Origin: a virus
Taxonomy: Duplodnaviria > Heunggongvirae > Uroviricota > Caudoviricetes
Reading direction: 5' to 3' (one strand)
IMG/VR virus record: IMGVR_UViG_2711768073_000021
Length of the DNA: 6,531 bases
Shown here: positions 1-6,531 of the stretch, piece after piece
Numbering within the stretch: position 1 is the first letter of the stretch
Layout of the letters: each line of letters starts with the position of its first letter
Made by a program: the position numbers and the translations under genes
The notes under the pieces: model-generated
What the model was told of the DNA's origin: nothing
Database searches by the model: none
The model's input: the letters and a program-made list of their open reading frames with translations, nothing else

Positions 1-111
1 CAGCTGCTTACCGCGCTTCGTGCGCTGCTGTTAAGCCGCAAGAATCCGTTTGGCGATATCAAATCTGATGGCACGGTGAAAACGGCTCTCGAAAACCTTG
101 GTTTGGGAGAA
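1..111. repeat. Inverted repeat, left arm; encodes the 3' end of a tail-fibre constant region and ends in crossover site A
   Basis: Bases 1..111 are the exact reverse complement of 2031..2141 (111/111 by direct comparison). The arm reaches the first base of the window, so its true length is unknown. Confidence 0.9.
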
Positions 112-552
112 GCGGCAAAACGAAATGTGGGCAACGGGGAAAACCAAATCCCTGATATGTCTTTCTGGACGGTTACTGGTGGCAATGGAAATTTTGTGAT
201 TCGTCAACCTGACGGGCTAATCATTCAGATGGTTACTGTAAGTATAAGCGGTCCAGTGGCGATGAATGGAATGACTGATAATGCTTATGCCATTACAGGT
301 TCTAATAAGTCTTATATTGCCACAGCCACATTGCCCTTTGTATTTCCTAATAAGGTGCTGGGCGTTATCCCTCTGGTATCAACAACAGCTTATGGTGGTG
401 TATCCAGTAATATTACAGGTTCATACGCGACGGCGGTTTGTTCTTTTGCCGCTGTCAGGGGGAATAATACGATTGTGTTCAAAGTCGACAAACCACTGAA
501 TGCAGCCTTTCCTTCAGATACCAGCGTCTCAGCGTTAATCATTGGACGGTAA
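1..552 (+). CDS. Tail fibre protein, 5'-partial at window edge: constant-region fragment fused in frame to variable C-terminal domain Sv
   Basis: Frame 1 is open from base 1 to TAA at 550..552; the ORF track starts it at GTG 76. Translation of 1..111 ([37 protein letters not shown]) is identical to the constant part of the minus-strand tail fibre 1572..2333. After the crossover site it diverges into a Gly/Ser/Thr-rich domain typical of fibre tips. Confidence 0.8.
86..111. other. Serine-invertase crossover site A (hix/gix/pix-like, 12-2-12)
   Basis: CTCTCGAAAACC-TT-GGTTTGGGAGAA is an imperfect palindrome of two 12-bp half-sites around a 2-bp core. It resembles the hix/gix consensus as recalled (TTnTCnnAAACC half-sites), lies at the inner boundary of the inverted repeat, and is in frame within tail-fibre coding sequence. 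Confidence 0.75.
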
Positions 553-554
553 GA

Positions 555-998
555 ATGAACTCAGTATTCTTTTCACCCGCAAGTAAAAGTTTTTATCTGC
601 AAGAATTGTTTCCAGAATATGAGGATGCGGGAACGCTTCCTGATGATGTTATTGAAATTACCAGAGAAACATATGAGCAATTTCTTGGGCTGCATCCAGA
701 AGGGAAAGAAATTGGCGCTGACAGTTCAGGACGGCCAATATGGATTAATTCCCCGCCGCCTTCAAAAGAGGATGAGATGCTGGCGGCTGAAATGAAAAAG
801 ATATCTTTGGTTTCAGAAGTCAATACCTACATCAATACCCATCAGTGGCCTGGCAAAGCTGCTATTGGTCGTCTGAAAGGTTACGAGCTGGAACAATATA
901 ATTTATGGCTGGATTATCTGGACGCACTGGAACTGGTTGATACCTCCAGTGCTCCAGATATTGAATGGCCTACGCCTCCGGTAGTTCAGGCCAGATGA
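555..998 (+). CDS. Tail fibre assembly chaperone (Tfa / Mu U / P2 G-like), partner of Sv
   Basis: ATG lies 2 nt after the Sv stop. C-terminus [24 protein letters not shown] matches the conserved Tfa C-terminal motif (DTSxAPDIEWP). It overlaps the opposing tfa 3' end convergently (970..998). Confidence 0.85.
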   Translation: MNSVFFSPASKSFYLQELFPEYEDAGTLPDDVIEITRETYEQFLGLHPEGKEIGADSSGRPIWINSPPPSKEDEMLAAEMKKISLVSEVNTYINTHQWPGKAAIGRLKGYELEQYNLWLDYLDALELVDTSSAPDIEWPTPPVVQAR

Positions 999-1575
999 CA
1001 TCCGGCGCGGTGCTGGTATCTGTTGCAGTCACCGCGTCAATGTAATCCAGCACAGCGTTAAGCCGGGTTGTTTCTGCCTGCGTCAGCTTCCGCCCGGCCT
1101 GCAATTTCAGCTGAATCAGACTAATGGAAGCCATAGCAGCATCAATCAGTGACTGGCGCCGTACTTCTGCCGCGTCTACTGCGGCGTTATGCTGTGCCTC
1201 AGTATCGGTCACCCATTTCTCACCATCCCATTTATCGTATGACGTTAACGGGGCGATAGTGGTTGTATTTTCAGGGTAATCACCCGGAACTGTGATTTCT
1301 TTTGATTCTCCTGTTTCGGTGCTATAGACGATTTCACCGCGATGGTCTGGCACATATTCCCATGAGTTAAAATCTGCAGAACGGCAAATTGCATAACCAG
1401 CTTTATATGAGCCAGGAGCATCTAAACAGGAACATGCCGGGATACCAACACCCACAGCAAGATATTCAGTTGATGTGGAAATATATTCCCGTGTTTCACC
1501 ATCATAATTATAAACGGTAATGTCTCCGGCCTTTGTGGCGATGAGTTCATTATTTAATACAGCTTTACTTATCAT
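970..1575 (-). CDS. Tail fibre assembly chaperone (Tfa-like), partner of Sv'
   Basis: ATGA start/stop overlap with the upstream tail-fibre gene. Contains ...KWVTDTEAQ... and C-terminal [24 protein letters not shown], characteristic of the lambda Tfa / Mu U family. Confidence 0.85.
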
Positions 1576-2333
1576 GCAGCCCTCACAATATAATTAAAGG
1601 CGATGTTACGGGAGCGGGTTTCAGATGCTGTGCGAACTGAGCGAGATGCGTCGAATGTCCAGTTATAAGCGCCATAACCCTCAATAATTTCGGCTTCCTT
1701 TAGACCTGTAGATAATACTTGCCCATGTTGACTAAATGGCCCTGAACTAAGTACGTCTCTAAAAAGCTGGGTACGCCCAAAAGAACCAACAATATTCTGA
1801 ATTGCATCATTCTGTGCAGATAATAAGTTACGACCAGAGTCAATCCCGCGCCCATCATCCCAGCCACGAATAAATTCACCGCGTAAATCTGGTAATTTTA
1901 ATGTTGGGTAAGCCTTTGCCAGATTTGGGTACTTTTCAGAAGAAAATACTGCTCCGTTACATTTTAGCCACCCCGTTGGCGGAGTGGCGGAAGGCCACGG
2001 AACAGGCACACCAACGGGTAATGCCGAACCTTCTCCCAAACCAAGGTTTTCGAGAGCCGTTTTCACCGTGCCATCAGATTTGATATCGCCAAACGGATTC
2101 TTGCGGCTTAACAGCAGCGCACGAAGCGCGGTAAGCAGCTGGTCATGCCGCCCCTTCTCCAGGCTGGCACCGGATGCCTCCACCACGCTGCAGAGTTCTT
2201 CCTGCAACATGTCAAAGTAGTCATCATCCAGATCGGTGGCAGGTGTGCCGGTCTGGGGGTTACCACGGGTAAAACCGTTCTTACCCGCGCCGAACTTATC
2301 CTTCTGCGCGGTTTTCGTGTCTATACGATGCAT
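1572..2333 (-). CDS. Tail fibre protein (constant N-terminal part Sc + variable C-terminal part Sv' with phage tail-collar-like motif)
   Basis: 253 aa. N-terminus [21 protein letters not shown]... is recalled as typical of e14/lambdoid-prophage side tail fibre proteins. The reading frame passes through crossover site B (ALENLGLGE). The C-terminal part has [11 protein letters not shown]...[13 protein letters not shown], resembling the T4 gp12-type tail collar motif. Tightly coupled to the upstream gene (3-nt gap) and downstream tfa (ATGA overlap). Confidence 0.9.
2031..2056. other. Serine-invertase crossover site B
   Basis: TTCTCCCAAACC-AA-GGTTTTCGAGAG, the reverse complement of site A, in inverted orientation relative to A. 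Confidence 0.75.
2031..2141. repeat. Inverted repeat, right arm
   Basis: Exact reverse complement of 1..111. Whether identity continues beyond 2141 cannot be tested, because the partner would lie left of base 1. Confidence 0.9.
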
Positions 2334-2336
2334 GGA

Positions 2337-4146
<1,810 letters not shown>

Positions 4147-4158
4147 CCACTACAAGAC

Positions 4159-4184
4159 TTCTCCCAAACCAACGTTTATGAAAA
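4159..4184. other. Third serine-invertase crossover site (site C), invertase-proximal, orphaned next to the IS
   Basis: TTCTCCCAAACC-AA-CGTTTATGAAAA. The first 14 bp (inner half plus core) are identical to site B; the other half-site is distinct. Starts 4 bp after the IS right terminus and ends 55 bp upstream of the invertase ATG. Same orientation as B, inverted relative to A. Confidence 0.65.
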
Positions 4185-4238
4185 TGCAGAAATAACGAGC
4201 AAATGGCATCATTCCTGCTTTTGTCAGGGAGATCTACC

Positions 4239-4793
4239 ATGCTTATTGGCTATGTACGTGTGTCAACAAATGACCAGAACACAGATCTACAACGTAATGC
4301 GCTGAACTGTGCAGGATGCGAGCTGATTTTTGAAGACAAGATAAGCGGTACAAAGTCCGAAAGGCCTGGACTGAAAAAACTGCTCAGGACATTATCGGCA
4401 GGTGACACTCTGGTTGTCTGGAAGCTGGATCGGCTGGGGCGTAGTATGCGGCATCTGGTCATTCTGGTTGAGGAGTTGCGCGAACGAGGCATCAACTTTC
4501 GTAGTCTGACGGATTCAATTGATACTAGTACCCCAATGGGGCGCTTTTTCTTTCATGTGATGGGTGCCCTGGCTGAAATGGAGCGTGAACTGATTGTTGA
4601 ACGAACAAAAGCTGGACTGGAAGCTGCTCGCGCACAGGGACGAATTGGTGGACGTAAGCCAAAACTAACGGATGAGCAGTGGGCGCAGGCAGGGAGACTA
4701 ATCGCTGCAGGAGAAACGCGTCAGCGCGTAGCATTAATTTATGATGTAGGAGTGTCAACACTATACCGAAAATTTCCTGTAGGCAGGGATTAG
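4239..4793 (+). CDS. Site-specific DNA invertase, serine recombinase of the Gin/Pin/Hin/Cin family
   Basis: MLIGYVRVSTNDQNTDLQRNAL...GDTLVVWKLDRLGRSMRHL...GINFRSLTDSIDTSTPMGRFFFHVMGALAEMERELIVERT...GRIGGRKPKLT... carries the catalytic Ser in YVRVS and a C-terminal HTH, near-identical in pattern to Gin/Pin as recalled. RBS AGGGAGA is 6 nt upstream of ATG 4239. The ORF-track start at 4203 is a probable over-extension. Confidence 0.92.
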   Translation: MLIGYVRVSTNDQNTDLQRNALNCAGCELIFEDKISGTKSERPGLKKLLRTLSAGDTLVVWKLDRLGRSMRHLVILVEELRERGINFRSLTDSIDTSTPMGRFFFHVMGALAEMERELIVERTKAGLEAARAQGRIGGRKPKLTDEQWAQAGRLIAAGETRQRVALIYDVGVSTLYRKFPVGRD

Positions 4794-5022: not shown

Positions 5023-6531
5023 TTACATATCTGCATCAGGAGCCAGTGGGTGTCGAAGATAATGTTCCTGAAGAACATCTGCAATTGATTTCAGATTGTC
5101 TTCCTTAACAATGGAAAGAATGTCACGTCCATTTTTCCAGTCTAATGATATTTTTGTATTTCTTTGCTTCTGATGAAGCAGCAGCTCAAGTGCTTCAGGT
5201 TCAAAATCTGATGAGGTCCAGAATGAAAAAGTCATTTTTCGGTCACGGTACACATGAATCTGACTGTAGAATTTTCTGATGCGTTGAACTCGTTCGAGCC
5301 ACTTTTCGATCATTTCGACTGAAATTAGTCGCTTAACTTCATAGCCTTTACATTCGTAGCACTTAATTTCTGCTTCGCCTCTAAAACCAATCACATCTAT
5401 TTCAGCCTTACCTGCCTCGGTACTGATTTGTTTATTCAAGTCCACAGTGCTGACATTTTGGGTTTTCAGTACGATGTGACCAACTAACATTTCAAACATT
5501 ACGCCTCTTATATTGATTGCGGCGCCTTCAATCCTCGTAAGTCCTTTAAATAGTTCGTTGATTTTTTCTGGGTTTGCTGCCGCAATAGCACTGGCACGAT
5601 TAAGAGTATTTAATAAACTGGACAGTAGTGCTGAAATGTCTTGACCAAGTAGGTTAGATACTGTTGTAGCCATTACACCAGCTTGTTTCGCAAGGCGAAA
5701 GGCTTCTGGATCAAAACGTTCTGCAATCAGCATAGCTAGAAACGGGCGAGTATTTCGCATATTTCTGCATCGCTGTACTTTCGTGAGATAGGTTTGGATG
5801 CTTTTGCTATCTAAATCATTGTATATGACATCTGCAACAATGAAGCCATTACTCATTTCACCTTTTTGTACTGTTGCTAAAGGCATAATATATGACGGAG
5901 CACATATGTCCCAATGGTGATGGCTAAATGAAGGCATATTCTGAGAGTTACGGACTTGGACCTTATTAAAGCTGCCAAGGCTATTGTGTTTAATCCAGTC
6001 AGCTACACCTTTAATGAGAATATCTTCAACCAGCAATTGGTTTCGGACATGTTGGGTATCCGTTACCCCGTTAATATTATTTATGTAAGTAACAAGACAA
6101 TCCCCCAAAACGACATCAACTTCCCTACGCAGAACTGAACCTTTAAGCAATTGCGCTTCAAGACGGCTTGACGCAATGTGTCCCTTCAGTTTGTCCGGAC
6201 TCCCTGAAACCTTGCTAAAAAGATATGTCGGGATCGCCCCTTGATAAGGGTGGAAAGCGAAAAAGGTGTGAGCATAGACTGTTCTTGCATTTACATGACT
6301 TTCAAGCAATGCAATCCAATATCGACGAGAGTTATAGTCCTTTGTCAGATAGAGAAATGCTTCATTTTTGGGCAAAGAAAAATGAGTAAAACGTTGAACA
6401 TCACCTCCAACGCGGGAGATTCGCTGTCTGGCGTTAACTTCTGTTAGGCCATTGGCTATCAGTTTTTCTCTTAAGGCAGATGAGGACATCGGCCCGTAGA
6501 TATGTAGAAGTTGTTCTATGGATGGTTTCAT
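5023..6531 (-). CDS. Hypothetical 502-aa protein with putative C-terminal PD-(D/E)xK (Mrr-catalytic-like) nuclease motif; candidate restriction/defence cargo; N-terminus may extend beyond window
   Basis: Long uninterrupted minus-strand ORF in visibly AT-rich DNA, convergent with the invertase. Residues ~340..410 read FEMLVGHIVL...AEIDVIGFRGEAEIKCYECKGYEVKRLISVEMIEKWL, matching the hhhD...(D/E)xK layout of Mrr_cat-type nucleases (D379, E393-x-K395; GAA TGT AAA is the reverse complement of 5347..5355). No Walker A motif seen. The ATG sits exactly at the window end, so the true start is uncertain. Confidence 0.7.
   Translation of the reverse strand: MKPSIEQLLHIYGPMSSSALREKLIANGLTEVNARQRISRVGGDVQRFTHFSLPKNEAFLYLTKDYNSRRYWIALLESHVNARTVYAHTFFAFHPYQGAIPTYLFSKVSGSPDKLKGHIASSRLEAQLLKGSVLRREVDVVLGDCLVTYINNINGVTDTQHVRNQLLVEDILIKGVADWIKHNSLGSFNKVQVRNSQNMPSFSHHHWDICAPSYIMPLATVQKGEMSNGFIVADVIYNDLDSKSIQTYLTKVQRCRNMRNTRPFLAMLIAERFDPEAFRLAKQAGVMATTVSNLLGQDISALLSSLLNTLNRASAIAAANPEKINELFKGLTRIEGAAINIRGVMFEMLVGHIVLKTQNVSTVDLNKQISTEAGKAEIDVIGFRGEAEIKCYECKGYEVKRLISVEMIEKWLERVQRIRKFYSQIHVYRDRKMTFSFWTSSDFEPEALELLLHQKQRNTKISLDWKNGRDILSIVKEDNLKSIADVLQEHYLRHPLAPDADM

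Follow-up and report, generated by a model that had tools for sequence, protein, structure and literature searches.

How many crossover sites does this tail-fibre switch really possess, and what is to be made of a third one that appears to be squeezed between an insertion sequence (IS) and the invertase gene? The question arises from the window (the whole 6,531-nt stretch of DNA analysed here), in which the 14-mer TTCTCCCAAACCAA occurs at positions 98-111 on the minus strand and at 2031-2044 and 4159-4172 on the plus strand, i.e. three times against 0.04 expected from 200 shuffles of the window, which is not chance. The three sites to which these matches belong are called A, B and C (Table 1). 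In the earlier note on this DNA, site C was seen as an orphan directly beside the IS end, the DNA from B to C as a later interposition, and the whole as a three-site, multi-state locus. The reading that we prefer, at a probability of roughly 0.8, is that the window would represent both flip states of an ordinary two-site switch stitched together, i.e. a scaffolding artefact.

Table 1. Features of the window (positions count from its first letter; + and - denote strands).
Feature	Position	Strand	Remarks
Tail-fibre constant region, last 85 nt before the site	1..85	+	perfect inverted copy of 2057-2141
Site A, constant-side crossover site	86..111	-	on the + strand: CTCTCGAAAACC TT GGTTTGGGAGAA
Invertible P-type segment, 1,917 nt	113..2029		Pfam Caudo_TAP, Collar
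Variable fibre end 1	to 552	+	inside the invertible segment
tfa	555-998	+	inside the invertible segment
tfa	970-1575	-	inside the invertible segment
Variable Collar-domain fibre end 2	from 1572	-	inside the invertible segment
Site B, constant-side site (site A as in the other flip state)	2031..2056	+	TTCTCCCAAACC AA GGTTTTCGAGAG
Tail-fibre constant N-terminal part	2057..2333	-	full ORF 1572-2333, 253 aa
ymfQ-like gene (Mu Gp48 family), 5' end cut by the IS (ymfQ')	2337..2909	-	Pfam Phage_Mu_Gp48
IS3-family insertion sequence, 1,258 bp	2897..4154	+	terminal inverted repeats, orfA/orfB, A6G frameshift motif
Scaffold join	4155..4157		AG after the IS end, then the N of the record (A in the window)
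Site C, canonical pin-proximal crossover site	4159..4184	+	TTCTCCCAAACC AA CGTTTATGAAAA; whole site TTCTCCCAAACCAACGTTTATGAAAA
Spacer from site C to the pin start codon, 54 nt	4185..4238	+	conserved with K-12
pin, serine DNA invertase, 184 aa	4239..4793	+	Pfam Resolvase and HTH_7
502-aa protein between pin and ssrA; flanks the switch, no part of it	5023..6531	-	ORF

What kind of site is C? Its half-sites match at 8 of 12 positions as inverted repeats flanking the central AA, which bears out the hix/gix-like 12-2-12 architecture ascribed to it before; equally exact is the claimed 14-bp identity of 4159..4184 with site B at 2031..2044, which also recurs at 98-111 in reverse complement. The run shared by sites B and C is 15 nt long (4158-4172), with 20 nt alignable at 95%, and the partner available to site C is site A in inverted orientation, TT on the plus strand being AA on the minus strand. 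Over its full length, site C is identical (26/26) to the pin-proximal (right) site of e14 in K-12 MG1655, TTCTCCCAAACCAACGTTTATGAAAA, located 54 nt upstream of the pinE ATG, and the same distance separates site C from the ATG of pin. The left site of e14 in MG1655, CTCTCGAAAACCTTGGTTTGGGAGAA, situated inside stfP, is in turn 26/26 identical to site A. The published e14 repeats, TTGGTTTGGGAGAAGG and CCTTCTCCCAAACCAA, have a core in common with the window sites and surround the 1,797-bp e14 P segment, which is inverted by PinE, PinQ and PinR (PMC12529663). Identity to the e14 site combined with equal spacing to the invertase thus makes site C the invertase-proximal boundary, as the earlier note had proposed, and in every complete genome examined this site is contiguous with a fibre variable end. 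Judged from its sequence, site C is the usual right-hand crossover site known from tail-fibre switches of the e14/Mu type, and it is probably active as a recombination partner and no orphan. The adjoining Pin matches the structure of Mu Gin (3uj3) over its full length (E = 2e-92) and has the catalytic Ser9. The pin promoter presumably lies within the 54-nt spacer; because a simple scan for the sigma-70 consensus between site C and pin gave no match, a promoter there can only be inferred, and promoter and terminator scans near this spacer and near the IS/ymfQ' junction found nothing either.

Does the switch look the same where it has been assembled without interruption? Relatives were sought with the exact YmfQ' protein, which marks this very IS junction because its annotated GTG start lies within the left inverted repeat of the IS (2897-2909; the same annotation is found in strain 602687). 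This marker was present in 91 collection blocks, with 10 places among the matches listed, and eight of these 10 (L004-L009, L011 and L012, several from complete genomes) are contiguous across the locus; the remaining two are L013 and L010, both described below. Each of the eight contains exactly two crossover sites, one on the constant side and one on the pin side, 1,945 nt apart (for example, at 10854 and 12799), and this is also the distance from A to B in the window; measured from start to start, site B thus occupies the place that the pin-type site holds in the contiguous relatives. The sequence of site A is unchanged in all eight, and their 1,917-nt interior differs from the window by 0-1 mismatches, lying in one orientation in five of them and in the other in three. 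The near-identity of these interiors indicates that the two orientations are natural inversion isomers made at exactly these sites, and that, on this natural evidence from relatives, the truncated remnant still inverts. Recombination at the site is therefore documented by precise isomers across relatives and by both junction types in the present assembly, evidence that is indirect for this isolate. Contiguous relatives all combine a constant-side site of the A type with a site of the C type, so that A plus C is indeed the normal pair, and the site abutting the invertase, which the earlier note suggested reading from intact relatives, is the pin-side C type in the eight listed. More broadly, in loci with the exact pin, 502-aa or 253-aa protein that retain both ymfQ and pin, these two genes lie on the same strand with one constant region, and the exact 253-aa fibre protein is present in canonical ymfQ-stf-tfa-tfa-var-pin loci.

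The junction between the IS and site C was looked for separately. It was found in none of 5,426 complete E. coli genomes (BLAST of 4000-4400), and exact as well as N-tolerant pattern scans of genome_contigs and metagenome_contigs returned zero matches; at the level of the whole window, BLAST against the 5,426 complete E. coli genomes and phage records gave no place that was at least 80% covered. Four BLAST rows with full coverage were considered as candidates for the IS/site C junction and discarded, being two-piece matches of 92% over 739 nt. A complete genome with a different arrangement is L010 (CP148297.1, 8756-12900), where the stretch comprising the IS/ymfQ' junction, the constant region and the left site runs into a different invertible segment that ends at a site of the pin type (TTCTCCCAAACCAACGTTTAAGAAAA), an invertase of 188 aa and P2-like tail genes, as if two prophage inversion modules had undergone exchange.

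Where does the window itself come from? Apart from one base, it equals positions 2-6532 of a draft contig of 31,529 bp (CYGD01000038.1; GCA_001284425.1), the single record returned for the partial product encoded at 1-552, whose gene opens the contig. The sole mismatch over 6,531 nt is position 4157, which is A in the window and N in the public record (position 4158 of the contig). This is the one N in the 10.5 kb of the contig examined, and it is located 2 nt past the IS end and 1 nt ahead of the 15 nt common to sites B and C, i.e. at two repeat boundaries, where contig ends would be expected. The N implies that the IS-to-site-C junction is a scaffold join, devoid of contiguous read-through sequence, and the supposed direct contact between an orphan site C and the IS end dissolves into an N in the record. 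The IS also lacks the target duplication of 3-4 bp expected of its family, GGA preceding it and AG-N following it, which is compatible with the joining of unrelated flanks or with an IS-mediated deletion, as in strain 602687. At the opposite end, the contig begins 1 nt to the left of the window, and the left copy of the constant region is a 113-nt contig-end tail; it follows that a second fibre gene at this place is without support. The inverted arms formed by this tail (1-112) and by 2030-2141 are 100% complementary in the repeat listing. With an N at one end, a contig-end tail at the other and two sites in each contiguous relative, three or more sites were not found on any one contiguous molecule.

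The most telling result comes from taking the window apart. When all DNA that separates the crossover dinucleotides of sites B and C (2045-4172) is deleted in silico, the product shows 0 mismatches over 2,238 nt to L004, L008, L009 and L012; it is the canonical state I. When the whole stretch made up of ymfQ', the constant region, site B and the segment is reversed and followed by site C and pin, there are 1-2 mismatches over 2,993 nt to L005-L007, and this reversed product is the canonical state II of these three relatives. The left tail would accordingly represent the state-I neighbour of variable end 1, the block 2030-4154 the state-II neighbour of variable end 2, and site C with pin the state-I neighbour of that same variable end 2. 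An overlay of two flip states thereby explains the order and orientation of every part of the window. The idea that the DNA between B and C was interposed later is not supported by this comparison, given that the block meets site C through an N and that its removal restores the canonical locus exactly.

It is not difficult to conceive how such a sequence might have come about. The real locus would be a truncated prophage remnant beside ssrA with two sites only, in the order IS, ymfQ', fibre constant region, left site, 1.9-kb segment, site C, pin and the 502-aa gene. The sequenced culture would have contained both flip states, in which case reads leaving one end of the segment towards the right lead into two different neighbours, the pin flank in state I and, in state II, the constant region followed by ymfQ' and the IS. 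These neighbours may then have been set in series by a greedy scaffolder (the identity of the scaffolder and the order of events are inferred), after which gap filling would have crossed the repeated IS and stopped where it ends, with a single N remaining, while the opposite end of the segment retained the 113-nt constant-region tail, giving the appearance of three sites. These thoughts find some support in the literature: flip states of e14 coexist in clonal cultures, where abnormal Illumina read pairs reveal both (PMC4272514), and pipelines built on SSPACE and GapFiller place Ns at read-pair joins, go through many greedy filling rounds and, as the authors of such a pipeline concede, may produce false joins (PMC5320598). 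That the segment was flipping in the sequenced culture is implied by the assembly itself, where both constant-region junctions are found. A query across the left end of the IS has up to 16 matching places per genome; since the IS is multicopy, a gap fill starting from ymfQ' can traverse it and stall at its end. The lengths of the two contig-end tails now known (113 nt here, 68 nt in the sister draft described below) were also tried as the trace of a single assembler k-mer, and they fit no single rule. Two observations are, however, counterpoints to the artefact. Two independent drafts place the pin contig at the IS side of the ymfQ' block, which a real adjacency would explain just as well, and the AG after the IS is not the GT of the ypjA' flank expected from strain 602687.

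Strain 602687 is instructive with respect to the IS. Its copies at two loci of this strain are 100% identical (L001, 8805-10062; L025, 9860-11117). They truncate two prophage remnants, one in ymfQ at ssrA and the other after tfa in the e14 locus, and both lack a target duplication, which suggests IS-mediated deletions. As the GTG start of ymfQ' is inside the IS repeat, the IS supplies the start codon of the ymfQ'-fibre operon; perhaps it also drives transcription of this operon in the remnant.

The second of the two drafts, L013 (GCA_001283505.1), agrees with the window in the order of its parts but has the segment in the other orientation; its N lies inside the IS (at the equivalent of window position 3881), and at its contig end there is a constant-region tail of 68 nt in which the crossover site is garbled. 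In that site, at 12797-12812, 16 nt of the crossover sequence are replaced by TTTGTCTTTTTTTTTT, probably contig-end or gap-filling noise. In L013, no N separates site C from the sequence that it runs into, var3-tfa3, which consists of a gp53-like variable end and a tfa fragment; var3-tfa3 has 99.8% identity with the cassette at the e14 locus of strain 602687, where the same IS then follows. The pin-proximal site and spacer at 4158-4229 of the window form an exact 72-nt repeat with the invertase flank of the e14 locus of strain 602687 (L025). This repeat of the ssrA- and e14-locus pin flanks makes a cross-locus gap fill possible and is long enough for the two loci to become entangled in short-read assembly graphs; only by way of such a cross-locus gap fill does the simple artefact model account for the var3-tfa3 junction of L013.

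What would have to be true if the window were, after all, to be taken at face value? In a genuine three-site locus, which we consider unlikely, an inverted second constant copy, ymfQ' and the IS would lie between the segment and the pin-proximal site, and the molecule would read constant(+)-A-segment-B-constant(-)-ymfQ'-IS-(few bases)-C-pin; there is only a slim chance that it exists in this form, the N hiding one or a few bases. Scaffold order and orientation agree between two drafts, and AG-N-C fits AGCC, the end of the K-12-type stfE variable region beside the site, making it conceivable that the IS inserted 4 nt away from the site; but the N sits exactly at the two repeat boundaries of the junction, and spanning reads would normally have closed a gap of 1 nt. 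The exchange of prophage inversion modules does seem to happen, to judge from the complete genome L010, but neither three sites nor the IS/site C junction turned up in any contiguous assembly searched, the left copy is merely a contig-end tail, the IS lacks a target duplication, and two known flip states, once overlaid, reproduce the entire layout. The claim of a three-site, multi-state locus is not supported, in view of that tail and of the fact that no complete or long contig had three sites. Were it nevertheless true, Pin could produce inversions of 1.9 kb (A x B) and 4.1 kb (A x C) and, rarely, a B x C deletion, and the 4.1-kb inversion would turn the fibre gene off and move the IS along. 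Some rearrangements were also worked through by hand and set aside: an IS-IS inversion within one prophage results in a single constant copy and two of the IS, inverting the stretch between the outer IS end and site C in place gives a product that lacks the constant/variable-end-1 junction, and IS-IS or site-site exchanges between ssrA and e14 remnants like those of strain 602687, whose products are tfa3/IS/ypjA' and ymfQ'/IS/tail-terminator junctions, do not give the observed order.

A complex but real arrangement in which site C is joined to var3-tfa3 and the IS, for example after recombination between ssrA-locus and e14-locus remnants, with the N hiding about 0.9 kb, seems very doubtful. 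Such an arrangement would explain at once why site C of L013 passes without an N into var3-tfa3, why this cassette is 99.8% that of the 602687 e14 locus with the same IS behind it, and why the right flank of the IS at that locus opens with AG. However, the IS of the scaffold, with its right end towards pin, is opposite to the tfa3/IS-left-end junction of strain 602687, the simple exchanges worked out by hand fail to give the scaffold order, and the exact 72-nt run common to both pin flanks permits a cross-locus gap fill. Could site C, alternatively, be a dead relic that no longer recombines, as the earlier note allowed? That is highly improbable: the site agrees with the functional e14 site at all 26 positions (PMC12529663), Pin is an intact invertase that retains its catalytic serine, the same pair of sites borders both orientations of an identical segment in relatives and has thus been flipped naturally in this element, and the presence of both constant-region junctions in one assembly implies flipping in culture.

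If the window is, as we prefer, an overlay of two flip states, little is gained for biology, and its significance is practical and twofold. Neither site nor switch is new, as both were already known in the 1980s, and what the window contributes is a new allele, carried by a prophage remnant that is itself common; what seemed novel, the three-site layout, is most likely an assembly artefact. Yet the case carries a lesson, namely that invertible segments in mixed cultures and a multicopy IS can give scaffolds that mimic multi-site recombination loci, and that a base substituted for an N conceals the only visible warning of a scaffold gap. Moreover, the flipping remnant keeps only ymfQ', the fibre cassette, pin and the 502-aa gene. 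Inversion of the e14 P segment has been reported to produce a fibre chimera that prevents phages from adsorbing, and the continued flipping of the remnant bears on this report (PMC12529663). Relatives possessing the 502-aa protein have it beside pin and ssrA; it has no Pfam match, and PADLOC returned only a weak match to LmuA (E = 0.007). A D...ECK motif near its C-terminus has the appearance of a PD-(D/E)xK nuclease, and the exact protein occurs in 106 collection blocks, its place between pin and ssrA being where e14 has mcrA. It is possible that it is a prophage-borne defence gene.

How would the two-site switch operate, and which known systems does it resemble? Gin, Hin and Cin act as dimers on 26-bp sites, which they bring together with a Fis-bound enhancer, found in the 5' part of the invertase gene, in a synapse or invertasome, followed by cleavage at AA/TT and rotation. 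By homology with these enzymes, the left site and site C would each be occupied by Pin dimers, the invertasome would assemble with the help of Fis bound at an enhancer (the need for both enhancer and Fis being assumed from the homology of pin and gin), and cleavage and rotation at the central AA/TT would invert the 1.9-kb segment. As a result, the constant N-terminus of the fibre would acquire one of two C-termini, each presumably with a dedicated assembly chaperone gene: the Collar-domain end, which gives 253 aa, or the alternative one, which gives 247 aa in relatives. The closest counterpart is the e14 P-segment system (pinE, stfP/stfE, tfaP/tfaE), for which PMC4272514 cites Plasterk and van de Putte 1985. 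Both crossover sites are 26/26 identical between the two elements, the site-pin spacing is equal, the order ymfQ - fibre constant - site - var/tfa/tfa/var - site - pin is shared, and the sizes are alike (1,917 nt between the sites here, 1,797 bp reported for e14). In contrast, the variable cassettes are other alleles here, the element resides at ssrA and not at icd, the 502-aa gene takes the place of mcrA, and the element is truncated at the start of ymfQ by an IS3-family element. Gin/gix of Mu, Cin/cix of P1 and Hin/hix of Salmonella likewise use 26-bp sites of the 12-2-12 type with an AA/TT crossover dinucleotide, and Gin and Cin also exchange tail-fibre C-termini; the sequences of gix and hix probably differ in detail from the window sites. 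Systems with more than two sites and several states do exist, such as the Min system of plasmid p15B, with six sites, and the R64 shufflon. A three-site locus in the window would resemble them, but whereas their sites lie on one verified molecule, the third site here is reached through a scaffold N.
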